Shown: positions 5,868 to 30,867, counted from the stretch's first letter. The stretch is DNA of 32,000 nt from Candidatus Nanopusillus sp. (GCA_046533775.1 JAWDOO010000001.1:60001-92000), one strand, 5' to 3'. The notes: generated by a model from the sequence alone, not told the origin. Translations and numbers: made by a program.

Positions 5868-5869
5868 TT

Positions 5870-9056: not shown

Positions 9057-9818
9057 ATGAAAAGAAGGGGTATAGATATGGCTGTACAGTTAATATTTGT
9101 AATAATAATAATGTTAGTAGTAGCAGTTATTGTAATTAAGTTATTCCAGCAACAAACATCAAAGATTAGTCAAATATCAAATACACAGATACAACAGGCA
9201 GTTTCAGATTGCTCAAGTTATTGTTCAGATCAAGTAACATTTTGTACAAAGTATGAAGACATAGGAAATGGACTTGTAGAAGTAAGTCCTGGATATTATA
9301 TTTGTTCAAATGCTGTTCCATGCAGTGTAGTATTACAATTATATGGTGGCCCTTCTAGTCAATGTCAATATCAGGGATATCCTATAACTCCTCTAGATTG
9401 TATGTATTTAGAATGTCAAAATTATATTGATAATTTATATTATGATCCATTACAAGCAACAAGTTATGTATTCGGTAACTATTCTCCTACTACATATTTT
9501 AATGCAACAACTGGACAAGTAAATATACAAATTTCTTCTCCATCTCAAATATTAAATCCAGGTCCATCACAATGCTCTGCACAATTACCAACATGGATTA
9601 CAAACCAAGTATTTGGTGCATTATTAAATATTATTAACTATTATAATACTGCAGATAATTGTAATTTGAATTTAACAGTTAATAATGAAGTATTAACAGT
9701 AACTGGAAATTGCACAGCATTGGGTATAAATAATAATGTCAATGGAATGCCATTATGTCAATTCTTATTGCAAGTACCATATTCCCAGTTGAATAATATA
9801 CCAAGTGTAACAAGCTAA
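9057..9818 (+). CDS. Cys-rich secreted protein with pilin-like (class III signal-like) N-terminus
   Basis: 253 aa. MKRRG|IDMAVQLIFVIIIMLVVAVIVI has basic residues, then Gly, then a hydrophobic helix, the canonical prepilin-like arrangement. The mature part has many Cys and NxS/T sequons and few charged residues. An alternative ATG at 9078 (MAVQL...) is preceded by aagggg. Confidence 0.5.
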   Translation: MKRRGIDMAVQLIFVIIIMLVVAVIVIKLFQQQTSKISQISNTQIQQAVSDCSSYCSDQVTFCTKYEDIGNGLVEVSPGYYICSNAVPCSVVLQLYGGPSSQCQYQGYPITPLDCMYLECQNYIDNLYYDPLQATSYVFGNYSPTTYFNATTGQVNIQISSPSQILNPGPSQCSAQLPTWITNQVFGALLNIINYYNTADNCNLNLTVNNEVLTVTGNCTALGINNNVNGMPLCQFLLQVPYSQLNNIPSVTS

Positions 9819-9822
9819 TGTA

Positions 9823-11793: not shown

Positions 11794-12074
11794 AATTACA
11801 ACAATCAATATATTGGATTATAATAACTTTTATATTAATTATAGCTGCTGGTCTATTTTCTTTTTATTATATTTATAAAATAAAAAATAATTTGAATGGA
11901 AATAGTATACAAACAATTAATTGCCAACAATTAGAAAATTTATATAATAAAAGCTTTTATGAAATAATTAATATTAAAGTATTTCTTAATGAAAATTGTA
12001 CAATAAATGGAATAACAATACCTGCAGGCTATAGAATTATATATATTTATAACGGAAGTATTAATTATATATGA
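11790..12074 (+). CDS. Small pilin-like protein (N-terminal hydrophobic helix)
   Basis: 94 aa. N-terminus is MKLQQSIYWIIITFILIIAAGLFSF. ATGA overlaps occur at both ends (11790, 12071). It ends in a beta-strand-like YRIIYIYNGSINYI. Confidence 0.45.
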   Translation: MKLQQSIYWIIITFILIIAAGLFSFYYIYKIKNNLNGNSIQTINCQQLENLYNKSFYEIINIKVFLNENCTINGITIPAGYRIIYIYNGSINYI

Positions 12075-12550
12075 AGAATGATATAGCAATAGATACTGTA
12101 TTTATTATAATAATAGCAATAATATCTGTTGTAGTTATATTAGATATTATTTTTACAAAATTTTTTTATAATTCTCAAGCATATTATTGTCAAACATTAA
12201 TATCACAAGGAGATTTTTCTCCATCATGTGAAAAATATTATCCTTCAGCAATAAATGTTATATATACAAATGAAAGTAATGATACAATTTATTCAGATAT
12301 AACAGGATTAATATTAAATTGCTATAATAATAATGTAAATACAAATAAATTATTTAACATATGTTATGATATTTATATAGATGAGAACATTACTCTTAGT
12401 TCATCAATATTAATTCAATATATACAAAATTATACCGCATTTAATCCAAACAATATTATATTCTATTTAAATAATAATGAAGGAAATATATATCCATACA
12501 ATAGTATATTTATAATATATAACAATAGTTATATTGTAATATGGCAATAA
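12071..12550 (+). CDS. Small pilin-like protein (N-terminal hydrophobic helix)
   Basis: 159 aa. N-terminus is MKNDIAIDTVFIIIIAIISVVVILDIIF. Contains paired Cys (ILNCY...NICYDIYI). The C-terminus is SIFIIYNNSYIVIWQ. Confidence 0.45.
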   Translation: MKNDIAIDTVFIIIIAIISVVVILDIIFTKFFYNSQAYYCQTLISQGDFSPSCEKYYPSAINVIYTNESNDTIYSDITGLILNCYNNNVNTNKLFNICYDIYIDENITLSSSILIQYIQNYTAFNPNNIIFYLNNNEGNIYPYNSIFIIYNNSYIVIWQ

Positions 12551-12954
12551 AGTCTCAAGAACTTCCAATTAATTATACCTTCTTAATAATTATAGGAATA
12601 ATTGTTACAGTAGTAATTTTAGGAATAATATTTTTATTGAAAGGAAATATAACTTCTTATATTAATAATATAATGCCAAAATATAATAATACACAAACAG
12701 TAGTAGAAACAAATGTAAGTTCAATACAAGATGTTGCAATGGATATAGTAGCATGTTATTATAAAAAAGCTCAGGGTCTTTGTTATTTAATTAATTATCA
12801 AGGAAATCCATTTACATGTCAGGATTTAATAAATAATGTAAGTAGTATAGATCCAAATGTAGTAATGCAAAATTGTAATTATAATATAAATCCGGGAGAA
12901 TATATATTAATATATTCGACAGGAAATTATGTTTATATTAATGTCCAAGGATAA
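12541..12954 (+). CDS. Small pilin-like protein (N-terminal hydrophobic helix)
   Basis: 137 aa. N-terminus is MAIKSQELPINYTFLIIIGIIVTVVILGIIFLL. The IVACYYKKAQGLCYLINY motif resembles that of the preceding ORF. The C-terminus is YILIYSTGNYVYINVQG. Confidence 0.45.
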   Translation: MAIKSQELPINYTFLIIIGIIVTVVILGIIFLLKGNITSYINNIMPKYNNTQTVVETNVSSIQDVAMDIVACYYKKAQGLCYLINYQGNPFTCQDLINNVSSIDPNVVMQNCNYNINPGEYILIYSTGNYVYINVQG

Positions 12955-12956
12955 AA

Positions 12957-13397
12957 ATGGATAAATGGCTTTGGATAATTGTAACAATTATTGCTTTTGG
13001 TTTATCTTTATATTTATATTTTAAATTTTCAAGCATAAATAATCAGACTCAATTATTATATCAAGATATATCATCTTGCCAAAATTTATATACAACAATT
13101 GAAAGCGTATGTTATTCAAACAATGGAACAGAAATTTATATTAATATTGAAATAAACAAGTATTTAAATTATATTTATGGTAATAATAGTTTATTAAGTT
13201 GTTATATATATGATGAATATTACAATTATACATTACCATGCAATATAATAATAAATACAACAAATAATATGATTCAATACTATACTTCTGGATTATTTTA
13301 TGAATTATCCTATGGAAATCCAAATGAAAAAATCCCATTACTTGTTGAAAAAACAACTCCAACAGAAGTAACAATTTATATAGAAAATCCAAGTTAA
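12957..13397 (+). CDS. Small N-terminally anchored or secreted protein
   Basis: 146 aa. N-terminus is MDKWLWIIVTIIAFGLSLYLYF. It is the last gene before the 37-nt gap at 13398-13434. Confidence 0.4.
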   Translation: MDKWLWIIVTIIAFGLSLYLYFKFSSINNQTQLLYQDISSCQNLYTTIESVCYSNNGTEIYINIEINKYLNYIYGNNSLLSCYIYDEYYNYTLPCNIIINTTNNMIQYYTSGLFYELSYGNPNEKIPLLVEKTTPTEVTIYIENPS

Positions 13398-13434
13398 AAA
13401 TTTTTAAAATTTTTTTAAGTATTATTAACTCATA

Positions 13435-14964
13435 ATGAAAAGAAATCAATTAAATTTAATTTCAGTGGCAATAATATTGATAATTATATCTTTAGCTTTT
13501 ATAATATATTATCAATATTCCATGAATGTTAAAAAACAGCAAGAAAATTTAATATTTGAAAATTTTATTAATAACTTACAAAATTTAGAAAATACAATAA
13601 ATAGTATTCAAGGTACATATTATGTAAAAGTTAATATACCAAATGGAGTTATATTATATACAAATGGTACAGAATTAATAATACAATATAACAACAATAA
13701 TTATACAATTAATTTTTACAAGAATGTAACATTATATAATAATAACAATCAAAATGTAAGTTTCCTATATCCAAACAATTATATATATCTTGTTAGTACA
13801 AATAATACTGTTTTTATCACAACAAATCTTCAAAATTCAATTACAATATTAAATGAATATTTACCAAGTGGAACTCTCGTATATGTAAGTCCAGGAAATA
13901 ATCAAAACAATAATAATCAAAATAATGGAGGAAATAACAATAATAATAATATTAATCAAAATGCTCAATGCTTATTTGAGTATACTGGACAGGCAAACTT
14001 TTTCTGGGGTAATGTAAATGGAAATAATTATTTACCTCCAATAGGAGATCAAGGAGAATGTGGAGACTGTTGGGCATTTGCATCTGCAAATGGAATTGCT
14101 TCAATATATATGATAAGAAATAATAATCCAAATGAAGGATTGCAATTATCTCCAGCATACTTAGCAATAGAATGCAATAATGGTTATCCAAATGCACCAA
14201 GCTATTGTAATAACAATATAGGTTGTAATGGTGGTTGGCCATATTCTGGTATATTATTTACATCTCAATACGGAATTCCACCTGATCCAGGATGGAACTA
14301 TTATGATTCTACTTTAGCTAACTGTTCAGAAAATAATGATCAAAGTTATCCTGGTGATGTATGTAATCAAAACTATAATGGGCCCAGCTCTCCATTATAT
14401 TATTCACAAGGTGTTATAGATCTTGAACAAAACGGACCTTTAACAGATCAACAAGTAATTCAAGATTTATTATGTTATGGGCCATTAGTTGCTGCTGGGA
14501 TGCTAGCAGGAAGTGGTGGATCAAATCCAAATATAGATCCACAGCAAATAGTATCCAGTTCCGGACATGCAATGTTATTAGTTGGCTATACTACTGGCAA
14601 TACTATATATTCTCAAATATGTCAAGAAGTATATGGAACACCAGATTGTTGGATATTTGAGAATGAATGGGGGGATAATTCAAACTGTATAGTTCTTACT
14701 ACAAGCGGAGTACCAGTATCTATACTAAGCAATCCTACTCAGTGCGGTGAACTATATCAAAATTATCAGGATTGCAATACTTATCTACAATCAGTTTTTA
14801 ACACACCAGGAATAGCATGCGGAGGTGTTTATTGGATGCAAGATGGATATTTGCTTGTACCATTTGATCAATCTCCCTATGGTTTAACATTCATTGGTAC
14901 ACCTTTTTCTGGCCAAATTTATGGAGACCTTGTAGCAATCCAAAATGTCACTATTTCACAATAA
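13435..14964 (+). CDS. Papain-family (C1) cysteine peptidase with pilin-like N-terminus and poly-Asn linker
   Basis: 509 aa. N-terminus is MKRNQLNLISVAIILIIISLAFIIYY. The C-terminal domain aligns by eye to papain. GDQGECGDCWAFASANG carries the oxyanion Gln and the catalytic Cys212 (14068-14070), with the same Q-x5-C spacing as papain NQGSCGSCWAF. Also present are LSPAYLAIEC, GCNGGWPY, SSGHAMLLVGY (His378, 14566-14568) and WIFENEWGDN (Asn-x-W). Confidence 0.85.
   Translation: MKRNQLNLISVAIILIIISLAFIIYYQYSMNVKKQQENLIFENFINNLQNLENTINSIQGTYYVKVNIPNGVILYTNGTELIIQYNNNNYTINFYKNVTLYNNNNQNVSFLYPNNYIYLVSTNNTVFITTNLQNSITILNEYLPSGTLVYVSPGNNQNNNNQNNGGNNNNNNINQNAQCLFEYTGQANFFWGNVNGNNYLPPIGDQGECGDCWAFASANGIASIYMIRNNNPNEGLQLSPAYLAIECNNGYPNAPSYCNNNIGCNGGWPYSGILFTSQYGIPPDPGWNYYDSTLANCSENNDQSYPGDVCNQNYNGPSSPLYYSQGVIDLEQNGPLTDQQVIQDLLCYGPLVAAGMLAGSGGSNPNIDPQQIVSSSGHAMLLVGYTTGNTIYSQICQEVYGTPDCWIFENEWGDNSNCIVLTTSGVPVSILSNPTQCGELYQNYQDCNTYLQSVFNTPGIACGGVYWMQDGYLLVPFDQSPYGLTFIGTPFSGQIYGDLVAIQNVTISQ
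13897..13962 (+). repeat. Asn/Gln-rich low-complexity linker (AAT/AAC/CAA-rich tract) inside the protease gene
   Basis: Encodes NNQNNNNQNNGGNNNNNNINQN, between the N-terminal roughly 150-aa domain and the papain-like domain. Confidence 0.8.
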
Positions 14965-15769
14965 ATATTTAATAGTATTATTTATTCTCTTTTTTATAAT
15001 TTTATCCTATAATATATATTCTATGAAGAATCCATTTGCAGTTTATTGTGAATATGGTGGAGGAATATATTATATAAATAGTACAGGATCTTATTGTATT
15101 GTAAATGGTACATACTTCAATGCTTTACAATATTATGAAAATGAAGTACCTCCTCAATATTCTTTTTGTGCCCATTATGGATTAATATATGTAAATAGTA
15201 GTTATTGTGAATATCCAAATGGAACATTAGTTAGTCCATATACATTAATTCCTCCATCGGCATATCAAGATTTAATTATAATTCCAAGAGTATATTGTAA
15301 TAGTTTATTAAATTGTTCAAATACTCCATGGTATTATTCACCATGTTCAAATCAAATCTATCCATGTTTTAATCCACCATATATACCACCTTCTTATTTG
15401 ATAAATAATGCTTCATATCAGACCGTATTATATGTATATAAAACAGAATATATGTGCGGATATTGTCCAGAAAACTTATCATTTGAAGGAGATTGGTTTA
15501 GATGCCCATATAACTATTCATTAGATCAATTATATCAAGAATTTTTACAACAATGTCCACCACCAAGTATTGTTTATATATCATGTACAGGTGTATTTGA
15601 ATGCATAAATCAAACTCAAATAAATGTAACAAACAATACTCAGCAATTAATTTATCCACAACCAAAAGTAAGCATTCAAAACAATAATGTTAATTTAGTT
15701 TTACCAGTAGCAATAGTAATAGTAATAATTATAATAGGCCTAGTTATTCTTTTATATTATCTAAAATGA
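14945..15769 (+). CDS. DUF333-like Cys-rich secreted protein with C-terminal TM anchor
   Basis: 274 aa. Signal-like N-terminus: MSLFHNKYLIVLFILFFIILSYNIYS. NPFAVYCEYGGGIYY...GSYCIVNGTYFNALQYYENE resembles the DUF333 (putative hemolysin, PF03891) motif NPAsvYC...GG...G.C...G...eW.yyrGeC, with a second degenerate copy (CAHYGLIYVNSSYCEYPNGT). The C-terminal helix is LVLPVAIVIVIIIIGLVILLYYLK. It overlaps the protease gene by 20 nt. Confidence 0.45.
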   Translation: MSLFHNKYLIVLFILFFIILSYNIYSMKNPFAVYCEYGGGIYYINSTGSYCIVNGTYFNALQYYENEVPPQYSFCAHYGLIYVNSSYCEYPNGTLVSPYTLIPPSAYQDLIIIPRVYCNSLLNCSNTPWYYSPCSNQIYPCFNPPYIPPSYLINNASYQTVLYVYKTEYMCGYCPENLSFEGDWFRCPYNYSLDQLYQEFLQQCPPPSIVYISCTGVFECINQTQINVTNNTQQLIYPQPKVSIQNNNVNLVLPVAIVIVIIIIGLVILLYYLK

Positions 15770-17424
15770 AAAATCAGATAAATATATTAGCATTTGTTAT
15801 TATTATTTCAATAATAATTTTATTAGTTCTTTTAGTTTATCTTTTATCAACCAGTTATAGTTCTAAAATAACACAAACATATAATGTAGAAAATCAATAT
15901 ACATTAACAATTCAAAATAGCATTGATTTATTACCTTATATCTATGATAATAAAGTTAATTTATCTTATGCATTTTTATTATCATATTTTTCATCTTCTG
16001 GAAATGATACATATTGTATAAATCAAAATATATGTACAAACATATCGGAAGATTTAATAAATTATTTTGATAGTATATATGGAAATAGATGGAACTTAAC
16101 AATATATTTCCTTCCTCCTGTAACTGGATGGATTGTTCAGATGTTTATAATGGGTGGTAATCTTGGAAATTGGGATCCATGTTCAATGAATCCCCCTCCA
16201 GATCCTGATGGTACACAATGGTATGAGTGGAATTATACATATTTCTTTGTAAATAATTATACAGAAAATATTAATCTACCAAATGTATATAATCCATTTT
16301 CTAATACGCCAATACAGCAGACCTTATATGGAGCAGGATGGGTAAATGCAACAGCACCATTTCATCAATCTCGATCGATAAGTTCGTGGGGATTACCAAC
16401 ATTATATAATGGAATGACCCAATCTCTAGCTGTACAAACTGGTTTCTGTACACCATTAACAAAAATATTTCCAAATTATAATTTTACAGAAGCCTCTGTA
16501 TATTGTCCTCAAGGTGAATGGAATTTATTTCCAAATTATGTAGGTGGAGGTGGTACTCCAGCGCAACCTACCTATTATTTACCCTCTTTCTTTTCTGGAT
16601 ATTTATGTATTTTTGCTGGATCTTGTCCTGTGACTAATAATATATATTTAACATCTATACCATATTATTATCAAAGCCCTCCTATTTATAAAACTGCTAC
16701 TGATATAAATAGATTAGCAGAATTTATAATCCCACAACAATATTTAGATGATATATGCCAAGAAGAATTTCATACAAGCTATTCAGGTCCTTCCCAGCAA
16801 TGTGGAGGTCAAGAAATGATTGTTGGAGCATTTTATAGAGGTGTAGTAAATATACCACCAAATTGCCAACAAGTATTTATAGATTATCCATGGCATGAAG
16901 TAATAAGATTGTATATCTCATTTTTGAATAAAAGTGGAGAACCTGATTATGTATTTTTAGCAGCAGATCCTTTCTGTGAATATAATTTAAATGGAGAAAT
17001 AATAGATTGCCCAACTGGTGTATTTGATAGTATACAAAATGTAAGTGGAATTATTGTTGGAAAAGAATGTCCTCTAGTTTATTTAGGAAATATTAATATA
17101 AATAGTGAAGGATTTTATAGATTTAATATTACTCAATGGGTAATAGATGATAGAGATCCAAATACAAATCAGTTTATAATTTCTGGAGTATATTATGATC
17201 CTCATCCTGGAGGAAATGGTATTGCAATGGCAAGAGTATATTGTATTACAAATACTGGAAATGTTGAAGAACTAAATTCATATATTTATGAAGGTAGTGG
17301 AGAATCAATGAGTCTAGGATACCCAATACCCCCAAATATAAATATATATGTTTCTTATATATATTTACCAATGGATATACCATTCCTAGGCGGATATCTA
17401 GTTGCTAAATTAACGGTATGGTAA
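15766..17424 (+). CDS. Large secreted protein with pilin-like N-terminus, no recognisable domain
   Basis: 552 aa. N-terminus is MKNQINILAFVIIISIIILLVLLVYLL. It has many Cys, Pro, Tyr and sequons. ATGA overlap at 15766. Confidence 0.5.
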   Translation: MKNQINILAFVIIISIIILLVLLVYLLSTSYSSKITQTYNVENQYTLTIQNSIDLLPYIYDNKVNLSYAFLLSYFSSSGNDTYCINQNICTNISEDLINYFDSIYGNRWNLTIYFLPPVTGWIVQMFIMGGNLGNWDPCSMNPPPDPDGTQWYEWNYTYFFVNNYTENINLPNVYNPFSNTPIQQTLYGAGWVNATAPFHQSRSISSWGLPTLYNGMTQSLAVQTGFCTPLTKIFPNYNFTEASVYCPQGEWNLFPNYVGGGGTPAQPTYYLPSFFSGYLCIFAGSCPVTNNIYLTSIPYYYQSPPIYKTATDINRLAEFIIPQQYLDDICQEEFHTSYSGPSQQCGGQEMIVGAFYRGVVNIPPNCQQVFIDYPWHEVIRLYISFLNKSGEPDYVFLAADPFCEYNLNGEIIDCPTGVFDSIQNVSGIIVGKECPLVYLGNININSEGFYRFNITQWVIDDRDPNTNQFIISGVYYDPHPGGNGIAMARVYCITNTGNVEELNSYIYEGSGESMSLGYPIPPNINIYVSYIYLPMDIPFLGGYLVAKLTVW

Positions 17425-18629
17425 AAAAAGAAGATAAAATCTTATTTCTCATATATTTAATATTATTTTTACTTTTTATTTATATTAGCAACTTTAATAT
17501 TAATATAATTATTTTTGGCACAATTTATTTATTCTTATTATCTTTTATATTAAAAAATTCAAAGAATACATCTTTAATATATAAATTAATATTTCCATTA
17601 TATATACCAATTGGAATCTTTGGAATTTATACTAATTTACCTTTACCATTTCCATTTCCATCAATATTTGGTTATATAATAAATTACTGGGTATTTTATT
17701 TCATAGCATTTTCTATGGGATATTATTTATTTGAAAATAACTTTTATATTTCAAAAAAATCATCAATATTTTATATAACTTCAATAATATTATTTATAAT
17801 ACAATTTTTCCTAGAATTTATTTATAATTCTGCAACTACAGATCTTGATGCAAAAGCAAACTATATAGTAGCTTTGTTCATTAATTATGCATATTTAAAT
17901 TTTTACACTTTTGAGACAATATATACTTTATTATTTATTGTTTTTGCAATTTTCTTATTCTTAGTTATGTACTTTAATGGCAATGAAATATTAATAACAA
18001 AAACACAAATATTCAGGAAACTATCTGAAATATATAAATACAAAAAGTATATATTTCTATTATTATTTATTATAATAATATTACAGATTATCATTGCTAT
18101 ATACAAATTATCATTTTATAATAGTTTAATTATAGAAAGTTCAGCTGGAGAATATAGTATCTATGAATATGAATCTCTAATATTTTTATCAATATACGAA
18201 TTTATAATTTACTTTTTAGTTTATAGAAACTTAAGATATAATGATTATACAAATTACTTATTACTTTTTACTATGGTTTTAATAATATTTTTTGGAGAAC
18301 TATATTTAACATATATAGACTTTGCTTCTGTAATTTTACATACTAGATATCTAATAGCTATGCTATTTTTCTTGATGGGAATTCATCATAGAATATATAA
18401 AAATAGTAAAAAGGCAATTACAAAAGCCTTAGGTATTTCCATCGGTATTTTAATTTTATTACAAAATATAACTGGAGAATTTATCGAATCTGTATATTTT
18501 GGAGGACCAAGTAGTATACATCTAATATCTATACCAAATATATTAATGGCACTTGGAATTATACATGGATTAGTGACACCAATCCTTATATTAACATTTA
18601 TATATTTGCATGTTAAATTAAAAATATGA
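17418..18629 (+). CDS. Polytopic membrane protein (paralog of 20570-21640)
   Basis: 403 aa, about 10 hydrophobic spans, no Cys. It shares blocks with the 356-aa ORF: IIFGTIYLFLLSFILKNSKN vs ILFGIFYFFVLYYFLKNTKFN, FENNFYISKK vs AENKLSINRK, and MLFFLMGIHHRIYKNSKKAITKALGISIGILILLQN vs MFLFFFTAIHAYLYHRFPDSKKIILGIVSGIPFILMN. Confidence 0.6.
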   Translation: MVKKEDKILFLIYLILFLLFIYISNFNINIIIFGTIYLFLLSFILKNSKNTSLIYKLIFPLYIPIGIFGIYTNLPLPFPFPSIFGYIINYWVFYFIAFSMGYYLFENNFYISKKSSIFYITSIILFIIQFFLEFIYNSATTDLDAKANYIVALFINYAYLNFYTFETIYTLLFIVFAIFLFLVMYFNGNEILITKTQIFRKLSEIYKYKKYIFLLLFIIIILQIIIAIYKLSFYNSLIIESSAGEYSIYEYESLIFLSIYEFIIYFLVYRNLRYNDYTNYLLLFTMVLIIFFGELYLTYIDFASVILHTRYLIAMLFFLMGIHHRIYKNSKKAITKALGISIGILILLQNITGEFIESVYFGGPSSIHLISIPNILMALGIIHGLVTPILILTFIYLHVKLKI

Positions 18630-19864
18630 GAAATCAAGTAGAAATTATTTACGTGGTTTTATTTCTAACAATTGCTATATTAATAATCCTTCTATCTTTT
18701 TATGCATTAACATATAATTATAATCAAAATATTGTTTTTAATAGATTTACTTCATTATCTACATTATCAAATTATCTTTTAGGATATTTACAAACATTAT
18801 TAACACAAGAAGGTTATGCAGAATCATATGTAGCTGGTACAAATGGATGGGGAAATGAAGAATGGGCTTCTTATCCTTACGGATGTATATTACCTCAATC
18901 ATGTCAAAATGCACTTCAATATTATAATAATTTATTAACTTCTGGATATGAAACTTTATTAACTTTTGGAGAACAATATTTAACTTCATATCAATATTAT
19001 TATCCCTATAATATATCTTTCAATTTTTCAAATAATTATCAGGCAGGAATTTTTGGAGATTGTAGCAATATAATTTCTGGAGAATACAATTATAATTTTC
19101 CTGTTTATGTTCAAGGTTTATATATAAATATTACAGGACCTTCTTCAGGTTCAATAATTCCATATGAAAGTACATCAAATATAACAAACAATCCTGCATT
19201 CTATTTGTATAACTTAGCATATCAGTTCTCTCAAAATGGAGAATTTTCAGATTGCTCATATCAAGATTGTTTAAATACATTGAATAATAATCCAACATCT
19301 ACATGTGCACAAGAATTTGAGCAATTTTCAAATAATCCAAATATTCAATGTAATGAAACTGTAATTCCATATCAATGTGAAAACATACCGTTATGTCAGA
19401 TATGTTTAAATCCTGAAGAAATTGCGTGTAAGGTAATATTACAATGTTCTGATAACCAATATAATGTATATTATAATGGTAATACATATCCACAAACAAT
19501 AACAATTACTTCGGTAGTTTTTTATGAAAATGTAACAAATCAATATTATTTAAATTGCGTATATGATTGTACTGAGACATATAATTTAATAAGTAATCAA
19601 GTAATATCTCAAAGTTGTACATTAGAGAATCAACAATATTCATGTTCTCCCCAAAATGGTTGTGGTAATGTAAATACAAATCAACAAGATAATGAATTAA
19701 CATATAATTTTCAATATTATTATTCAATCCCAATTGAATGCTATCTATGTATAATTGGTGGAGAGCAATGTCCTGCCTGTTTACCTGGCGAATGTCCGAA
19801 TAATCCAACATGTCCAGAAACCATATCATTTCCAAATGAATGTGTATCACAACCATCTAGTTAA
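18626..19864 (+). CDS. Cys-rich secreted protein with pilin-like N-terminus
   Basis: 412 aa. N-terminus is MRNQVEIIYVVLFLTIAILIILLSFYAL. The C-terminal half is very Cys-dense (e.g. CYLCIIGGEQCPACLPGECPNNPTCPETISFPNEC). ATGA overlap at 18626. Confidence 0.5.
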   Translation: MRNQVEIIYVVLFLTIAILIILLSFYALTYNYNQNIVFNRFTSLSTLSNYLLGYLQTLLTQEGYAESYVAGTNGWGNEEWASYPYGCILPQSCQNALQYYNNLLTSGYETLLTFGEQYLTSYQYYYPYNISFNFSNNYQAGIFGDCSNIISGEYNYNFPVYVQGLYINITGPSSGSIIPYESTSNITNNPAFYLYNLAYQFSQNGEFSDCSYQDCLNTLNNNPTSTCAQEFEQFSNNPNIQCNETVIPYQCENIPLCQICLNPEEIACKVILQCSDNQYNVYYNGNTYPQTITITSVVFYENVTNQYYLNCVYDCTETYNLISNQVISQSCTLENQQYSCSPQNGCGNVNTNQQDNELTYNFQYYYSIPIECYLCIIGGEQCPACLPGECPNNPTCPETISFPNECVSQPSS

Positions 19865-19929
19865 TCTTTATATGGATAAAGTGAAGAAGAAGTTAAGGAT
19901 ATAAGAAATGTTCTAGATAACTAAATAAA

Positions 19930-20577
19930 ATGAAAGAACAATTATCTATAATATTTATAACAATATTAACTGTATTATTTTTAGTTGGAATGATAATTTT
20001 ATTAGCTATATTTTCTAATATAAATTTAACAAATTATAAAGAACAAACATCCTTTTCATATGAACAAGATATAATATATGATCTATTTTCTCCAAATTGT
20101 TTGGGATATCCAAATTATCCAATATATTTTACAACATTAGAAAAATTGGAACAATTTAATCAAATATATTATAATGAACTTCCAAATTGTACAATATTTC
20201 CTTATACATTTAGGGCAGAAATAGATAATTATAGTTTTGGAATAATAAATTTTAATGGAAATTGCAATACATATACATATCCAATTTCTTTGTATTATTC
20301 TCTAGATTATATTAAATTAACTATATGTAAAAACTATTATTCAGATTTTTATTATTTTTTATATAGTTTCTGTTTAAGTAATGAAAATATTTCAAATCAA
20401 ACTTTTGTATTTTTATTTCCAACAAATTTATCTGGAAATATAACATGTACAGAAAATACAAATGGAGATATTATATGCAATTATATACCATGCTATTCAA
20501 TAAATAATATTACATTTTATCAACTTGTAACAGTATATTTAGAAAGAATTAATCAAACATATTTTAGAATTGCATAA
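19930..20577 (+). CDS. Secreted protein with pilin-like N-terminus
   Basis: 215 aa. N-terminus is MKEQLSIIFITILTVLFLVGMIILLAIF. It is Cys-containing and sequon-rich. It is preceded by a 65-nt gap with an atataag box about 32 nt upstream. Confidence 0.5.
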   Translation: MKEQLSIIFITILTVLFLVGMIILLAIFSNINLTNYKEQTSFSYEQDIIYDLFSPNCLGYPNYPIYFTTLEKLEQFNQIYYNELPNCTIFPYTFRAEIDNYSFGIINFNGNCNTYTYPISLYYSLDYIKLTICKNYYSDFYYFLYSFCLSNENISNQTFVFLFPTNLSGNITCTENTNGDIICNYIPCYSINNITFYQLVTVYLERINQTYFRIA

Positions 20578-21640
20578 AAGTTTTAATGAATTTCTATATA
20601 TAATGGGTGAAACCATTATAGATAGATTAATCGATGAAAACAAAAATATCAATAAGCATATACTTATATTATATTTAATAATATTCCCAATATCTATGTT
20701 ATTTTTTACAAATTTATATTATATCTTATTTGGAATATTTTACTTCTTTGTTTTATATTATTTCTTGAAAAACACAAAATTTAATATGATAAAAATTTTA
20801 TATTTATTAATTTTTTTATTGCCTATATTAAATATTTTTAATAATATTTTATTTAAATATTTTGTTTATGTATTTTTTTCATTTATTTTATTTTATTTCT
20901 TTGGAAATTTTGTTGCAGAGAATAAATTATCTATAAATAGAAAACAAATAATAATATTAATAATTTCTCTAATATATATTTTATTTATAACATTATACAA
21001 TATTATAAATATTTATTCTCTATTTTTTATATCCCTTCTAGGATTTTTATTCAATTTGGATGATAAAAAAGTATATCATTTAGGTTCATTAAATTTTTTA
21101 AGCAAATATAACCAAATTATTTTCTCCATAATTTCTCTTTTTATATTTATACAGTTAATACTTTCTTTAATTGCTCAAAATATTTTAATATTATTTACTA
21201 TATCTTTATTCTCAATATTAGAATTTATTTTATTGTTAATGATTAAAAGAATATTTGATAATAAACCAGAAGGATTCACAATGTATATTTTAATATTAAT
21301 AATATTTTCATTTATCTTCTTTACAATTTTATTTTTCTTAACAAAAATCAATATAATTTACATTATTCAAAATATTATAATTATGTTTTTATTTTTCTTT
21401 ACAGCAATTCACGCATATTTATATCATAGGTTTCCAGACAGTAAAAAAATAATTTTAGGAATTGTTTCAGGAATACCATTTATATTAATGAATTTAATAA
21501 ATTATTTTTACTATATTTATCAAGGAAATTTAATTAATTTTCCTTTATTCATAATTTTATTTTCAATAAACTTACTAATATTAGCAATTATGGGATTAGT
21601 AATAGTTTATATACATTCCATATATAAAAAGCATATTTAA
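20570..21640 (+). CDS. Polytopic membrane protein (paralog of 17418-18629)
   Basis: 356 aa on the ORF track. The codon at 20570 is TTG; the first in-frame ATG is at 20603 (MGETIIDRL...), so the true start is uncertain. There are multiple hydrophobic spans and no Cys. Paralogy blocks are listed under 17418-18629. Confidence 0.6.
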   Translation: MHKSFNEFLYIMGETIIDRLIDENKNINKHILILYLIIFPISMLFFTNLYYILFGIFYFFVLYYFLKNTKFNMIKILYLLIFLLPILNIFNNILFKYFVYVFFSFILFYFFGNFVAENKLSINRKQIIILIISLIYILFITLYNIINIYSLFFISLLGFLFNLDDKKVYHLGSLNFLSKYNQIIFSIISLFIFIQLILSLIAQNILILFTISLFSILEFILLLMIKRIFDNKPEGFTMYILILIIFSFIFFTILFFLTKINIIYIIQNIIIMFLFFFTAIHAYLYHRFPDSKKIILGIVSGIPFILMNLINYFYYIYQGNLINFPLFIILFSINLLILAIMGLVIVYIHSIYKKHI

Positions 21641-24429: not shown

Positions 24430-24741
24430 ATGAATGATATTACTATAATGACTTATAGTTTATCATTCCTCATAGGATATTTTTCAGCAGATTATATAAT
24501 TAGAAAATTTTCACCAGAATTCTTTATTGAAATTAAAACAAAGACAAAAGAATATAGAGCAAAAATTCATCATATATATTTATCAATATTTGGAATAATA
24601 CCAGCAATAATTGGAATGATTACATATTTATATGAATTATATATATTAACAACATTATTTTTGGGCGCTGCAATTCATGATGCAATATTAGAAATAAGAA
24701 AGAGATTTAAAAAATTAGATTATATTAAACAAAGCAAGTAA
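24430..24741 (+). CDS. Small membrane protein (about 3 TM), unknown function
   Basis: 103 aa with three hydrophobic segments. It converges on and overlaps the 3' end of the 1421-aa ORF by 27 nt. Confidence 0.45.
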   Translation: MNDITIMTYSLSFLIGYFSADYIIRKFSPEFFIEIKTKTKEYRAKIHHIYLSIFGIIPAIIGMITYLYELYILTTLFLGAAIHDAILEIRKRFKKLDYIKQSK

Positions 24742-27700
24742 TCCTATTATTAAACCCCCTATTCCAATTAAATCTGTTGGAGATATTTTTTCAGATACTA
24801 CTATTTGAGATTGTGTATAGTTTGCTATTACATTATTTGGTCCCAATATATATATTGGGACTTGAGTACTAAATGATGAGGAACCATATGTAGAATTACA
24901 TGTTATACCATATATTAAACTACTTACACCACTAGAAGCTCCCAAAATATTTATATCCAATTCTGAAGATCCATAAGGACTTATAACAAAATTATTACTA
25001 ATCATTCCATTTATACTATAGTTAGTAACAATTGCTTTATTATTTGTAGTTGATGGAATTGGTATTAGAGAACATTGAATGTTTGTTGGTACTAGATTTT
25101 TTATTAAGACAGGATATTTATATTCTTGTCCAACATATAAACTTATTACATTTGTTGCAACTGCTATTCCCATTATTGATGATTGATTAGTTAAATAATT
25201 ATAATATATATAATTTTCATAGAATTCTGCATAATTATTTATTGATTGAATTTGTGTATTACATAATGATCCTGCACACATATATTGTTGATATACAAAG
25301 TCTGAATTACAATTTCTAGAGAATTGTGCTCCATTAAATATTATATAACATGTTTGTGCATTATCATCTACTATATTAAATGTTGTTAATGATTGTAATT
25401 GTGCCCCATTTGGTGGGGAAATTATATAGCTTATTGGTAATATTATTGAATAATTATATATATATGTATTCCATCCATAAATTGTAAATGTTATATTATA
25501 ATCTTGTGGAGAACAATATAAGTTTGTTATATTAATTTCTACATTCAAATAACCTGTTTGATTTGGATTTAATGAATTTATTTGACCACCAGTATTTAAT
25601 ATTTGTATACAATTTGAATTATAATATATATTTTGTACAGATACATTTTCAGCAGGTACCGGTCCTGTATTTTGTACTGCTATAGTTATATTTGAAGGTT
25701 GTCCATATGTTACTTGAGTTAATGATGGATTAGTATATATATTTAATGTATCCCAGTTTATATTTACATATCCATAATATGTTACTGGACTATATACGGT
25801 TAATCCATATGCATTTTGATATGTTACACTATAATTTATTGTACAATCTTGATGTGAACATAGATTTGTTGGGAAATAAATATATAATGGAGAATATTGC
25901 TGTTGTTGTAATAAGAAACTATTATTTGGATCATTCGGAAGATTCCAATTTACATTTATTGTAAGATTTCCTACTCCAACATTTGTTATATTACCAATAT
26001 AAATTGCATCACCTGGATTTGTATTATAAATATATGGATAATATGTTAAATTTTGTAAATATACGGTAGCATTTGGATTTATTACCAATAAATAATATCC
26101 CGGTTCTGGATATATAGGTAACCATCCTTCTGCCTGTCCTACTATATCACCAATATTACATAAAGTTCCATTTGCATCACATATATAATTCGCTGGATTA
26201 ATACATCTTGTTTTTATATAATCTTGATATATTACATAATAACCTGCATCATTTATACTAAAATTATATAAAGTAAAGTAAGAACTTAATGTAAATCCTG
26301 GAATTAATAATCCTTCATTTGGATATATATTATAAACAGTATTTCTATCTATATTATATTGCGTGAAGTTGAATGCTGAATTTGATATACCTTGTACATA
26401 CTGAAATGAACTTGGATTATAATATTGATTTGAACTGTATAACCAAGCAGCAACAGAAGCTATATAACTCCATGTAGCACCATCACTACACAACCTGTTA
26501 TATCCACCACTTACATTAAATCCTACAGATGTATTCTGTGCTAAAACATATATTCCATTGTAATATGTATAATATGTTCCTGAATATGGTCCATAATATG
26601 AGAAATATATAGATAAAGGATTTGAATTTGAATTAGCATTCGTTATTGTTATCGCATGGGAACATGATTGATTAGTAAATTCTCCAGGAGTAACTTCTAA
26701 TACTTGTAGTGGATTGTTAATAAATGGTTGATTAAATGAAGTATTATCATAATAATATTCCCCATAATATGTATAATCTCCAGTATTAGTGTCATAATTA
26801 TCTATATTTAGATCACATAAGTTCTGACCCCAATCTGGATCTCCAGATCCAGGACAATCTGTTCTAGTAACTATACTTTCCCCATTTGGTAAAATTACTG
26901 TAAAGTTAAAGTATGTATTGTTTAATAAATTATTTGAAGAAGGACAACCTGGAATTATTTGAGCTGCATCATCTCCCCCTTGATATATTGGATTTGTATA
27001 ATATTCAAAATAATATGGATAGTTTAAATATATGAATCCTGTATAATTATATTGATCACAAGATAATGATGAACTATTTTCTCCGCTTACTGTACAATTT
27101 TGAACAGTTATATTATAATCTATTATTTCAGAATTTATATTATTTGGCAAATTTGATGGTAAATTGTTGAAATATACCGTATAATTATAAATAGGTGTAA
27201 TATTTCCTAAATAACTATAATTACCAATTGCAAAAATTTGTAATGGATTTGATGAATTATAAAATTCATATGAAACTGTTACAGTTCCATTGAATCCTTG
27301 TGTTGTTATATTTAAAGAATCTGAAGGCGTACATATTTGATTTGAACCTAGATATAGTTCCTGAGAATGTATATTAAATAATAATGGTAATAAAACTAAT
27401 ACAAAGATAAATAATTTTTTCTTTTTCATCATAAATAATATTATTGCAATAATTATTATTAATATTACTACTAAATATGTATAATTATTATTAAAATAAT
27501 TGTAATGATTTTGAACAGTACTTGGATATGTTTGATTTGTAGTGATATTTTGAATTGTATTATTTATTATCCATAGATTAGAATATTGAGATGAATAGAA
27601 AGAAATATAGTAAACCCCACTACTTAATGTATAATTTAAACAATCATTATTTATATTTGTAGTATATATTATGTTTGATTCAGAATTATATCCTATATTT

Positions 27701-28980
27701 AATATTCCAGAAATGTTTGAACATATATAGAAATAATTATTTGTATAATTTATATAAATTAAATTATTTATTGGAATACCATAAGTATTTGATTGATTTA
27801 AAATATAATATGCACAATATCCATAATCCAAATTATTATTAGAATATAGATTTATACATAAATCGAAGCTAGTAGAATTTAATGGTAATTGTAGATTTAC
27901 ATAAGTAAATTGTGTACTATTCCAACTTATATTTCCTAAGTATATATTTTCTTTAAATCCCAATGTATTTGAATAAACTTCTGCTTCTACATTTGGAGTA
28001 ACTGGATATGTATAATGATCTGGAGATGGAGCTACTATAAATGTTAAATTTCCATTACCTTGTAAATAAACACCATCTAATCTTGTTGTTGGACCTAAAA
28101 CTATAAATCTTAATCTATATATTGACTCTGTTTGATTATTATATAATAAAGTTATTCTTAATGAGTAAGCATTTGGATATAATTTTGCAACATTTATATA
28201 TGGAATATTTATTATATTATATCCTTCATTTAATTGTACATTTTCAGTATAATTGTATACCGGATTATATAAAATATCATCCCATGGAGATATTAAAATA
28301 TTTAATGTAGCATTTGTACTTATACTAGAATATATACCAACTGTTAAATTAATATAATTTGAAACACCATATCCAGAAGGTCCATTTAATGAAGAATAAT
28401 AATATCCTGATGATGATAATAGACTACCCCATGTATATAAAGCAGGAGAACTTAAATAAGTATCATCTTTTATAATATAAATTTCTGGAACATTGTTTGG
28501 ATTATTTATATAAAATTCTTGATATACTCCTGGATAATATATAAAAGGCAAACCATTTATTTCACTTAAAGGTGTATATAAATATGCAACAATATAATAA
28601 TATCCGGAAGGTAAATTATCCGGAATTGTATAATTTAATGGTATATTTAAAGATTCTCCAGGTTGCAAATATATATTTTTTATTACATATTCATATACTT
28701 CATTATCAGATGTAAATTGGAATGGATAAATATTATTATTATCATTTTTTTGTATTATTTGAATTACTAATGATGCATTTGGTATATAATAAATATCCCT
28801 ATAATTTATATAAACATTATAGTATAATGTTTGACCTATAGATAAATTATTATTCGATAAATTTATACTTAAAAATGCTACTGGTTGATATAAAGATTCT
28901 GAATACCATATATTATATCCTTGAGAAAAAATTGAATATAGAGAAAATAAAAGAAATGATAATAAATATATCTTTTTCAT
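24715..28980 (-). CDS. Giant surface (S-layer-domain/CARDB-like) glycoprotein candidate; apparent in-frame fusion of two surface proteins
   Basis: 1421 aa. The Sec-like signal is MKKIYLLSFLLFSLYSIFSQ. An internal TM-KKKK-second signal-like segment lies at aa 500-540. The C-terminal anchor is LIGIGGLIIGLLALFNII. Beta-sandwich-like segments resemble CARDB/COG1361 S-layer domains (LQPGESLNIPLNYTIPDNLPSGYYYIVAYLY; ITIAVQNTGPVPAENVSV...LNPNQTGYLNVEINI). There are dozens of NxS/T sequons and very few K/R/D/E. Confidence 0.6.
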   Translation of the reverse strand: MKKIYLLSFLLFSLYSIFSQGYNIWYSESLYQPVAFLSINLSNNNLSIGQTLYYNVYINYRDIYYIPNASLVIQIIQKNDNNNIYPFQFTSDNEVYEYVIKNIYLQPGESLNIPLNYTIPDNLPSGYYYIVAYLYTPLSEINGLPFIYYPGVYQEFYINNPNNVPEIYIIKDDTYLSSPALYTWGSLLSSSGYYYSSLNGPSGYGVSNYINLTVGIYSSISTNATLNILISPWDDILYNPVYNYTENVQLNEGYNIINIPYINVAKLYPNAYSLRITLLYNNQTESIYRLRFIVLGPTTRLDGVYLQGNGNLTFIVAPSPDHYTYPVTPNVEAEVYSNTLGFKENIYLGNISWNSTQFTYVNLQLPLNSTSFDLCINLYSNNNLDYGYCAYYILNQSNTYGIPINNLIYINYTNNYFYICSNISGILNIGYNSESNIIYTTNINNDCLNYTLSSGVYYISFYSSQYSNLWIINNTIQNITTNQTYPSTVQNHYNYFNNNYTYLVVILIIIIAIILFMMKKKKLFIFVLVLLPLLFNIHSQELYLGSNQICTPSDSLNITTQGFNGTVTVSYEFYNSSNPLQIFAIGNYSYLGNITPIYNYTVYFNNLPSNLPNNINSEIIDYNITVQNCTVSGENSSSLSCDQYNYTGFIYLNYPYYFEYYTNPIYQGGDDAAQIIPGCPSSNNLLNNTYFNFTVILPNGESIVTRTDCPGSGDPDWGQNLCDLNIDNYDTNTGDYTYYGEYYYDNTSFNQPFINNPLQVLEVTPGEFTNQSCSHAITITNANSNSNPLSIYFSYYGPYSGTYYTYYNGIYVLAQNTSVGFNVSGGYNRLCSDGATWSYIASVAAWLYSSNQYYNPSSFQYVQGISNSAFNFTQYNIDRNTVYNIYPNEGLLIPGFTLSSYFTLYNFSINDAGYYVIYQDYIKTRCINPANYICDANGTLCNIGDIVGQAEGWLPIYPEPGYYLLVINPNATVYLQNLTYYPYIYNTNPGDAIYIGNITNVGVGNLTINVNWNLPNDPNNSFLLQQQQYSPLYIYFPTNLCSHQDCTINYSVTYQNAYGLTVYSPVTYYGYVNINWDTLNIYTNPSLTQVTYGQPSNITIAVQNTGPVPAENVSVQNIYYNSNCIQILNTGGQINSLNPNQTGYLNVEINITNLYCSPQDYNITFTIYGWNTYIYNYSIILPISYIISPPNGAQLQSLTTFNIVDDNAQTCYIIFNGAQFSRNCNSDFVYQQYMCAGSLCNTQIQSINNYAEFYENYIYYNYLTNQSSIMGIAVATNVISLYVGQEYKYPVLIKNLVPTNIQCSLIPIPSTTNNKAIVTNYSINGMISNNFVISPYGSSELDINILGASSGVSSLIYGITCNSTYGSSSFSTQVPIYILGPNNVIANYTQSQIVVSEKISPTDLIGIGGLIIGLLALFNII
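27361..27483 (-). other. Internal junction: TM anchor + MMKKKK + signal-peptide-like segment
   Basis: aa 500-540 read YTYLVVILIIIIAIILF-MMKKKK-LFIFVLVLLPLLFNIHSQ. The in-frame ATGs are at 27432-27430 and 27429-27427. The second segment mimics the true N-terminus: MKKIYLLSFLLFSLYSIFSQ vs MKKKKLFIFVLVLLPLLFNIHSQ. Confidence 0.8.
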
Positions 28981-29004: not shown

Positions 29005-30867
29005 TTAAATCTTCTTACTAGTTGCAATTTCTATAACTTCATCTATTGTTTTTACAGGTGTTATTTTTATCTTATCAAATAAGTCTTCAGGTATATCATT
29101 ATAATTACCCTCCGGTACTATAACTTCTTTTAATTTAGATTCTATTGCAGCTTCTATTTTTGCTATTATACCCCCAACAGGTAATACCTCTCCCCTTATT
29201 GATAAAGAACCTGTCATTGCCAAATCCTGTCTTACTGGCCAATTCTTTAATGCAGATATTATTGCAGTTGCAACAGTTATTGAAGCCGAATCTCCTTCTA
29301 CACCTTCATATGTTTGTAAAAATTGAACATGAACCTTATATTTCTTCAAATCTTCTCCAAATTTCTTTTTTACTACTGCAGATACATTTACTATTGCCTC
29401 TTTTGCAATTTTTCCTAAATTTCCTGTAGCAATAATTTCCCTACTACCCTTTCCAGGTACAACCTCTGCCTCAACAGGTAATACTAATCCTGAATAATAT
29501 AGCCTTGATCCAATTACTGCCAATCCATTTACCCTTCCAATTTCATATCCATCAGTTTTTATTATTTGATATTCTTTCCTTCTTTCAATATAATATTTGG
29601 ATATTTGCTCTTCAATTGTTAATGCCTTTTCCTTTGCTTCTATAACATCTTCAGGTTCAACATATTTTTTTCCTTTTGCTTTTGCAATATCTCCTGCCAA
29701 TCTTACCAATCCTCCCAAATCTCTTAATCTTAATGTTAAATAATTTTTTCTTCCAGATCTTCTTTGAGCTTCTCTAATAATTTCTATAACAGCCTCTTTT
29801 GTAAAATGTGGTATATTACCTGTTTTTTTAACTTCCTGTGCAACAAATTGAGCAAATTTATTTGCAGTTTCCTCAGTAAATAATATTTCAGAATTCATAA
29901 ATACTTCATATCCATATCCTTTTATTCTTGATCTAAATGCTGGATGCAATTTTTCTAATGATTCCAAATTTCCAGCTGCTACTAATACAAAATCAGCAGG
30001 AGCTGGTGTAGTTCTTACCATTGCACCAGCAGATCTTTCAGATCTTCCAAATATTGGATATTTCTTTTCTTGTAAAACAGATAATAATTCTATCTGAACC
30101 TCTGGTCTTAATGTTCCAATTTCATCTATAAACAATACACCTTTATTTGCCTTATGTATTGCACCTGCAATTACCCTCTGATGTGCTGGAGTTTCAAGGC
30201 CTCCGGATTGAAATGGATCATGTAATACATCTCCAAATAACATACCTTCAAATGCACCCGTAGCATCTACAAATGGTACAGAAGTTCTGTTTGAATTATC
30301 TACCAATAATTTTGGTACATTTTTCATTATTTGCTTTTGCATCACTTGGAAAGAAAATGATAAACTAGCCATTAAAATCATAAATCCAATAAATGTTGCA
30401 CCGGCCATTATATAATTTCCTTCATAATAAAAGTACATTGGAGTAAATGCTGATATAAATAATAATAAAATATAGAAATATTGGAAAATTTTTGTTTGTT
30501 CTAATATCTTTTTTCTCATTTCTTCTACAATTTTTTTACCAGCTCCCATAGGTACTGTTTTTATTATTGGTTGGTATTCATCATTTGGATTTGGGAATAC
30601 CAATATATCTTCTAAATTTTTAACTTGTTCTTTATCTTCTGATAATATTTCTGCCAATGCTCGCGCTAGCATAGATTTACCAGTGCCAGGATCCCCTATC
30701 AATAAAACATGTCTCCTCTGTTTAGCAGCTTTTTTAATTATATCTAATGCTTTATCTTGTCCAATAATTTGCTCTGATATCTTTTCAGGTACATTTATTT
30801 CTTCTGTAGTCTTAAATTTGAATATATTATATAAGTCCTTTATTGATATTATTGTATTTTCAGACAT
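29005..30867 (-). CDS. lon: Archaeal membrane-bound Lon protease (LonB)
   Basis: 620 aa. Walker A is [14 protein letters not shown] two-helix membrane insert ([22 protein letters not shown]...[17 protein letters not shown]) lies between Walker A and Walker B ([10 protein letters not shown]). The protease domain has the Ser ([13 protein letters not shown]) and Lys ([11 protein letters not shown]) dyad. Confidence 0.92.

Follow-up and report, generated by a model that had tools for sequence, protein, structure and literature searches.

The stretch of Candidatus Nanopusillus sp. DNA analysed here (GCA_046533775.1 JAWDOO010000001.1:60001-92000; 32,000 nucleotides (nt), G+C ~24%), which we call the window, contains a long open reading frame (ORF) on its minus strand at 24715..28980. 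The ORF encodes 1421 amino acids (aa) and its sole stop codon is the terminal one. The layout read from the translation is a signal peptide, an ectodomain and a transmembrane (TM) anchor, followed by a short basic cluster and then by a second signal, ectodomain and anchor. A preliminary description of the sequence had proposed that two such units lie in one stop-free frame as two surface-protein genes fused together, and this is what we find. Because each half has stand-alone relatives, and these are adjacent genes in other DPANN archaea, the ORF is almost certainly a genuine architecture that arose by ancient in-frame fusion of a two-gene cassette conserved across DPANN. The relatives of the first half are referred to below as N-type and those of the second half as C-type.

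Layout of the fused reading frame

The features of the ORF are listed in Table 1. The two ectodomains measure 480 and 864 aa. The protein is rich in Asn, Tyr, Ile and Ser, has 55 N-x-S/T sequons and contains only 26 Lys and Arg residues. There are 21 Cys in the half with ectodomain 2, and C550, C709, C722, C773, C926, C934, C941, C1041, C1046, C1124 and C1156 are invariant in a 13-sequence alignment. The C-type core carries the motifs SGDPDWG, CSH, CSDG, PGYY..Y.DY....C..P..YIC, LCN.G and GW. From the order of the segments and the positive-inside rule, both ectodomains would lie outside the cell and the KKKK cluster inside. This cluster is best read as the former basic tail of an N-type protein merged with the n-region of a C-type signal peptide. 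The two in-frame ATGs given in the preliminary description, at 27432 and 27429, are present and both fall inside the first TM segment (TM1).

There is a convergent ORF on the plus strand at 24430-24741, encoding a conserved membrane protein of 103 aa, which overlaps the 3' end of the 1421-aa ORF by 27 nt (24715-24741) and is also found in related loci.

Table 1. Features of the 1421-aa ORF and its upstream neighbour (window coordinates)
Feature	Position	Strand	Remarks
Whole ORF, fused N-type and C-type surface glycoprotein precursor	24715..28980	-	1421 aa plus stop; stop codon 24715-24717
N-terminal Sec-type signal peptide, residues 1-19 MKKIYLLSFLLFSLYSIFS, then Q20; predicted cleavage S19|Q20	28924..28980	-	I-F-S|Q motif kept in orthologues; -3/-1 assignment predicted
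Ectodomain 1, residues 20-499 (480 aa), beta-sandwich domains, N-type homologue	27484..28923	-	N-only matches, N-half profile, AlphaFold2 (AF2) strands
TM1, residues 500-518 YTYLVVILIIIIAIILFMM, putative stop-transfer anchor of former N-type protein	27427..27483	-	Hydropathy peak 2.97; AF2 helix 496-517
KKKK, residues 519-522, predicted cytoplasmic loop	27415..27426	-	Basic cluster in all fused homologues
Internal signal peptide, residues 523-539 LFIFVLVLLPLLFNIHS, then Q540; predicted signal-peptidase site S539|Q540	27364..27414	-	AF2 helix 521-533; [IV]xSQ kept; cleavage predicted
Ectodomain 2, residues 540-1403 (864 aa), Cys-containing, beta-rich, C-type homologue	24772..27363	-	C-only matches, C-half profile
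Conserved C-type core, residues ~690-1060 (boundaries approximate)	25801..26913	-	Part shared with stand-alone C-type proteins
CARDB/DUF11-like beta-sandwich signature, residues 1081-1121	25618..25740	-	Sub-threshold matches only
C-terminal TM anchor, residues 1404-1421 LIGIGGLIIGLLALFNII, runs to the C-terminus	24718..24771	-	Kept in orthologues
lonB, upstream gene (context)	29005..30867	-	Stop 24 nt before ORF start; lonB-then-ORF order conserved

Relatives of the two halves and origin of the fusion

A HMMER search of 1.84 billion representative proteins, made with a profile of residues 1-1173 and distant orthologues, gave a total of 204 matches. The majority are 500-620 aa long and align only to profile positions ~1-490; more than 100 are N-only proteins of ~520 aa, ~16 are C-half-only proteins (e.g. 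P0157, P0079, P0123, P0126, P0139 and P0093) and a few are full-length fused proteins (P0013, P0014 and P0016). The N-only sequences are complete type-I membrane proteins with a signal peptide, an ectodomain, a TM segment and a short basic tail (e.g. ...LLKRGSEDRKKNHI), and the named members come from metagenome-assembled genomes of Aenigmarchaeota, Altiarchaeota, Diapherotrites and 'Nanoarchaeota'. The C-only proteins are 545-1331 aa long and have an N-terminal signal peptide of their own, a shared Cys-containing core and often a C-terminal TM segment. Assorted Ig-like domains surround the unannotated core of the C-type homologues and these accessory domains are highly variable. There are weak Pfam matches among the N-type homologues to MG2 (6 of 30) and to Arrestin_C. 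One C-half-type relative, P0015 (1112 aa), has the first ~230 residues of ectodomain 2 duplicated internally, so that the domain after the internal signal occurs twice.

The halves themselves are not related to each other. Pairwise alignment, as proposed in the preliminary description, revealed no homology (BLASTP E>0.7, best E 0.78; hhalign probability 2.7%). The suggestion that tandem paralogous genes had lost the stop codon between them is therefore right in that tandem genes have fused, but the genes were not paralogous and the loss of the stop is not recent.

Six contigs with N-only genes were inspected for the gene that follows. In every case this gene is a large one on the same strand (791, 1000, 1190, 803, 545 and 1212 aa), its frame differs from that of the N-type gene and it begins very close to the N-type stop codon (-8, +4, -4, -4, -4 and +10 nt). 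The stop/start overlap is ATGA in three contigs (L037, L038 and L039), two of which hold N/C pairs. The N-half profile matches the N genes of L035-L040 with E=1e-32 to 1e-46. Three of the six downstream proteins are matched directly by the C-half profile (L037_C, 5e-26; L039_C, 3e-25; and L035_C, 2e-12), two more are tied to the C-type family by BLASTP at 1e-20 to 1e-75, and five of the six are homologous to one another. An N-type gene followed by an abutting or overlapping C-type gene on the same strand is thus the arrangement in five of the six contigs. Genes so placed imply that translation would be coupled and the two products made in equimolar amounts. Shine-Dalgarno-like sequences (AGGAGG, GGAGG and GGGGG) occur within the Arg/Lys/Gly codons of the N-type cytoplasmic tail in L035, L037, L038 and L039, where they would also serve the gene downstream.

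The unfused pairs (e.g. GCA_016185435, Aenigmarchaeota, L037; GCA_016933855, Altiarchaeota, L039; and GCA_018830525, 'Nanoarchaeota', L035) are homologous to both halves of the window ORF. They share with it the gene order, a signal peptide on both proteins and the N-type TM segment with its basic tail, which reads RRRKA, KNRRK or KRGRRK in unfused proteins. In contrast with the single ORF of the window, each of them has two ORFs, which are separated by a stop codon, lie in different frames and are spaced -8 to +10 nt apart; they are uncharacterised and belong to no Pfam family. At the junction, L037 reads ...LIIMTRRRKA, then a stop, then MRSAVKWLAIVIMPFALLAYSVSA|ELK, whereas the window reads ...AIILFMMKKKKLFIFVLVLLPLLFNIHS|QELY. 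Because the unfused genes abut in this order, the hairpin of the window is an N-type anchor and basic tail joined to the n-, h- and c-regions of a C-type signal peptide.

We suggest that the two genes were merged by a small indel at the stop/start overlap, in an ancestor common to Nanopusillaceae and their relatives. Where the overlap is ATGA, the change needed just ahead of it would be no more than a 1-nt deletion or a 2-nt insertion, by which the stop would be lost and the frames brought together. The anchor and basic tail of the first protein and the signal peptide of the second would then have become the TM-KKKK-TM hairpin.

The fused form is found well beyond the window. A protein homologue search of 5.8 billion proteins yielded 12 homologues, among them proteins of Candidatus Nanobsidianus stetteri, Nanobdella aerobiophila (MJ1_0095) and strain YN1. 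Ten of them are 1410-1461 aa long, with an identity of 61-91% and a coverage of 99-100%; the other two (P0011 and P0012) are ~32% identical in alignment and are also single chains. The layout signal-ectodomain-TM-basic cluster-TM-ectodomain-TM is present in all 12. The single chain with a TM-KKKK-TM hairpin that the preliminary description listed among its interpretations is accordingly correct for what is encoded, and the orthologues, compared as it had advised, uniformly make this a bona fide conserved architecture rather than a recent fusion. A second search using the family alignment (word index) found no further relatives. The gene order lonB, fused ORF, S24e, S27ae, UDG and arginase is kept in all loci, including the distant locus L012. 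A functional link with lonB was considered and rejected; since lonB is absent beside the unfused genes, its linkage with the ORF is probably a matter of synteny.

Two further explanations were considered. The idea that an error of assembly or sequencing, or a pseudogene, joined two ordinary adjacent genes in the window, which the preliminary description had raised in the form of an assembly error, gains something from the A-rich stretch in which the junction sits (atgatgaaaaagaaaaaa) and from two metagenome contigs that break there. However, the ORF is unbroken, or present as a contig-truncated part, at each of 11 genome loci, and the frame is open across the junction at 16 additional metagenome loci. 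In a pattern search the junction is continuous in the window and at 27 loci, including the closed genomes of N. acidilobi (CP010514) and YN1 (AP031373). Outside that set it is also continuous in Nanobdella (AP019769, L005) and in L012, which is 32% identical and syntenic. The closed Nanopusillaceae genomes with a continuous junction number three and are from cultured organisms (N. acidilobi 7A, Nanobdella aerobiophila MJ1 and YN1). There are no internal stops in any of the 10 full-length ORFs compared, and the architecture is retained down to 32% identity. Because the junction is unbroken across loci, closed genomes and distant relatives, assembly error and recent loss of a stop are excluded, and the chance that any such artefact underlies the ORF is negligible. 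By its distribution the fusion is judged to be ancient, not recent, being common to every Nanopusillaceae genome and to syntenic relatives at 32% identity.

The other explanation is that initiation at the ATGs at 27432 and 27429 yields the C-half as a separate protein, either in addition to the fused chain or in its place, by way of an internal promoter or retained translational coupling. There is a Met at the junction in most orthologues, the ancestral genes were probably translationally coupled and the database protein P0015 begins with MMKKKK. Against this, the junction of P0004/L015 reads ATA GTA CTG and so has no canonical start codon, there is no Shine-Dalgarno-like sequence upstream of the two ATGs, and synonymous conservation at the junction (0.72-0.86, mean 0.75) shows no excess. 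This evidence is weak, given the extreme codon bias. Since L015/P0004 lacks a start codon at the junction, initiation there is not a conserved feature and translation as one chain is favoured. The downstream protein from an internal ATG, as put forward in the preliminary description, appears improbable. P0015 was also considered as a separate C gene and rejected: its own locus was not recovered (best identity 64%) and the contigs L022 and L027 end at the junction, so that it is probably a contig-edge gene call. L022 and L027, which are independent metagenome contigs, both terminate precisely where the orthologue has its KKKK junction (position 1-2). The likely cause is either that assembly broke in the A-rich stretch or that the N and C halves are mosaic between strains.

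The internal signal segment

The export signal of the second gene survives in the chain, and two membrane-anchored proteins are therefore probably still produced. We somewhat favour the view that signal peptidase would separate the chain into two membrane-anchored subunits. There are exactly two copies of the motif [IV]xSQ among the 1421 aa, at 17-20 and 537-540, whereas shuffling gives an expectation of ~1 anywhere; these are the ends of the two signal-like segments, whose shared ...SQ ending was already pointed out in the preliminary description. Nearly every Nanopusillaceae sequence has H/N-S-Q at the internal site, although the hydrophobic core of the second TM segment (TM2) varies freely. 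In a distant clade both sites have changed together, to VYG|L at the N-terminal position and VYS|Y at the internal one, and elsewhere among the fused relatives the site reads VFS|S, SYS|L, IKA|D or IYG|Q, in each case in keeping with the -3/-1 rule. The internal site itself reads IHS in the window and is VHS or VNS in some relatives, in agreement with the rule; contig L029 is an exception. The last basic residue lies 18 residues from the predicted internal site, a distance that unfused C-type proteins also show in their N-terminal signals. The internal signal has an h-region of 13 residues and a c-region N-I-H-S; an h-region of this length is usual where a signal is cleaved, and it is short for a TM segment that is to be stable.

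In the sequence of events that we propose, the Sec system would export ectodomain 1, TM1 would stop transfer and KKKK would remain in the cytoplasm. The internal signal would then restart export, now of ectodomain 2, and signal peptidase I would cut after S19 and after S539. The N-subunit would be left holding the TM1-KKKK-TM2 hairpin, and the C-subunit would begin with Gln-540 and be anchored by the C-terminal TM segment. The outcome would be two N-glycosylated, membrane-anchored subunits in a 1:1 ratio, each with an N-terminal Gln, acting together at the cell surface.

Several points weigh against this account. Agreement with the -3/-1 rule is by itself weak evidence in a protein so rich in Ser, Thr and Ile. 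Contig L029 (around 621-1109) has Pro at -1, reading VHPQ instead of VHSQ, which reflects either an error in sequencing or a natural variant, one that signal peptidase would be unable to cut. Both of the AF2 runs, which used 13-sequence alignments, gave a predicted local distance difference test (pLDDT) score of 54, a low confidence that is uninformative on contact between the halves. The unfused contexts number only six, and in one of these the downstream protein (L038_C) has no similarity to the C-type family. The N. acidilobi orthologue, Nps_00425, went undetected by tryptic proteomics (PMC4935971 supplement), which fits with the protein itself because few of its residues fall in usable peptides: only 8% are in tryptic peptides of usable size.

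The same ancient fusion could instead leave the internal segment uncut, giving one mature chain with two ectodomains, a TM hairpin and a C-terminal TM anchor. The chain is continuous everywhere, AF2 places a helical hairpin at 496-517 and 521-533, the Pro at -1 in L029 would block signal peptidase and the N. acidilobi table gives Nps_00425 four TM segments, all of which suit an uncleaved product. However, a stable hairpin leaves without explanation both the strict H-S-Q that follows a variable TM2 and the parallel change of the two signal ends in distant clades, and it must be formed with an h-region of only 13 residues. We regard the uncleaved chain as possible but rather unlikely. Taken as a whole, an ancient cassette fusion whose internal signal is cleaved to release two subunits is the best explanation of the data, and one in which we have moderate confidence.

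Known systems, the rest of the window and wider meaning

No Pfam or NCBIfam family is matched above threshold by either half. At residues 1081-1121 the scores are 15.1 bits for DUF11 (cut-off 24.6) and 19 bits for TIGR01451 (cut-off 24). Sequence searches of the PDB with three profiles found nothing meaningful, and the C-type core likewise has no Pfam or PDB relative. The AF2 models, which are of low confidence, show strings of beta-sandwiches, with strands at 37-393 (pLDDT up to 87) and the helices 496-517 and 521-533 arranged as a hairpin. Foldseek searches of PDB and BFVD returned only generic beta-sandwich arrays (alpha2-macroglobulin, TEP, CD109, DUF11, Big-1 and FN3) with template modelling (TM) scores of ~0.1. 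The macroglobulin (MG) arrays of alpha2-macroglobulin, TEP and CD109 were the top matches for both models, and the resemblance is one of strings of beta-sandwich domains only. A true relationship with alpha2-macroglobulin was rejected: there is no thioester (CxEQ) motif, and the TM-scores are 0.09-0.16 with root mean square deviations of 35-50 Å, from low-confidence models. Foldseek found no likeness in BFVD or PDB to viral envelope or class-II fusogen glycoproteins, which is a weak negative given the low confidence of the models.

The preliminary description spoke of an S-layer-type protein. There is such a label in N. acidilobi, where Nps_00425 is annotated 'S-layer domain', arCOG02079, with four predicted TM segments (PMC4935971 supplement), and this is a generic annotation only: no PDB sequence match and no S-layer family of Pfam or NCBIfam was found. 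In Nanobdella the expression of MJ1_0095 ranks below 100th and the top-expressed S-layer candidate is MJ1_0160 (bioRxiv 10.1101/2023.10.27.564410). The product is a surface glycoprotein and not the major S-layer protein, and the S-layer designation is not supported beyond that annotation. Literature searches on arCOG02079 and on DPANN with macroglobulin gave nothing relevant.

The Sulfolobales SlaA/SlaB proteins are similar in that adjacent genes encode a membrane-anchored protein of ~450-520 aa and a large, heavily N-glycosylated, beta-sandwich-rich partner. They differ from the window protein in that it has no sequence homology to any solved structure, both of its parts are membrane-anchored and the expression of MJ1_0095 ranks low. 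The order of the SlaA and SlaB genes is also the reverse of the N-type/C-type order. Clostridioides difficile SlpA, which is cut by Cwp84, and Staphylothermus marinus tetrabrachion are single precursors that yield two stoichiometric surface subunits. In these systems, unlike here, the cut is made outside the cell by dedicated proteases, and the precursor has neither a TM hairpin nor a signal peptide in its interior; no homology links them to the window protein.

There is also a parallel in layout with viral precursors. The Gn-Gc, prM-E and p62-6K-E1 polyproteins have the same linear order of signal, ectodomain, TM segment, short cytoplasmic loop, internal signal, ectodomain and TM segment. The bunyavirus (Gn-Gc), flavivirus (prM-E) and alphavirus (p62-6K-E1) precursors are cut by host signal peptidase. 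Gn retains the signal of the second subunit as an extra TM segment, and the N-subunit of the window protein would do so too after cleavage. In contrast with these precursors, the window gene is cellular and archaeal, no fold or sequence similarity to them was found (BFVD gave only Ig-like arrays, TM-score about 0.1) and its cleavage is predicted. The true relatives of the window protein are the unfused DPANN pairs. We know of no described archaeal cellular example of a cleaved internal signal peptide, and searching the literature for archaeal internal signal peptides gave nothing relevant. It is a tentative and somewhat doubtful idea that the ORF is an archaeal cellular 'polyprotein', with its internal signal cut to give two stoichiometric, pyroglutamate-capped envelope glycoproteins that would form a DPANN-wide heterodimer for host contact, in the manner of Gn/Gc.

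Elsewhere in the window, putative RNA polymerase genes are found near the start on the minus strand (4065-7387 and 348-4065). Reading of the translations assigns them as a split rpoB (ORFs of 505 and 600 aa), then rpoA' and rpoA''. Because these genes lie at its start, the window is taken to be core chromosome. There is a long run of ORFs on the plus strand at 9057-21640 that encode secreted or membrane proteins rich in Asn, Tyr, Ser and Thr, many with pilin-like N-terminal hydrophobic segments; the pilin-like ORFs start at 9057, 11790, 12071, 12541, 12957, 13435, 15766, 18626 and 19930. A polytopic membrane protein of 656 aa with no Pfam match is encoded within the run at 9823-11793. The run is probably a type-IV-pilus-like locus with a FlaJ/TadC-like platform, and loci of this kind have been discussed for Nanoarchaeota (PMC6142677). 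Inside the cluster, at 13435-14964 (plus strand), is an ORF for a papain-family C1 cysteine peptidase of 509 aa (PF00112, E=3.7e-18) with an N-terminal membrane or pilin-like anchor, and this protease may be secreted or directed at the host.

Very little is known of the surface proteins of DPANN archaea, which live attached to the cells of their hosts. What is new here, on the sequence comparisons, is a predicted DPANN-wide, tightly coupled cassette of N-type and C-type surface proteins, together with its fusion in Nanopusillaceae, where the internal signal peptide has apparently been retained. The gene pair has no Pfam or PDB relatives, and its conservation and tight coupling extend over Aenigmarchaeota, Altiarchaeota and 'Nanoarchaeota'. 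The natural fusion, which occurs in the cultivable Nanopusillaceae (Nanobdella and Nanopusillus), provides a Rosetta-stone argument that the two proteins work jointly and in a 1:1 ratio. Should the polyprotein reading be true, the fusion would be Rosetta-stone evidence for an unrecognised, DPANN-wide two-protein surface machine. The finding revises the database labels 'S-layer domain' and 'hypothetical, C-terminal TM helix', and, while it does not amount to a new type of system, it gives work on the surface biology of DPANN a specific lead that can be tested.

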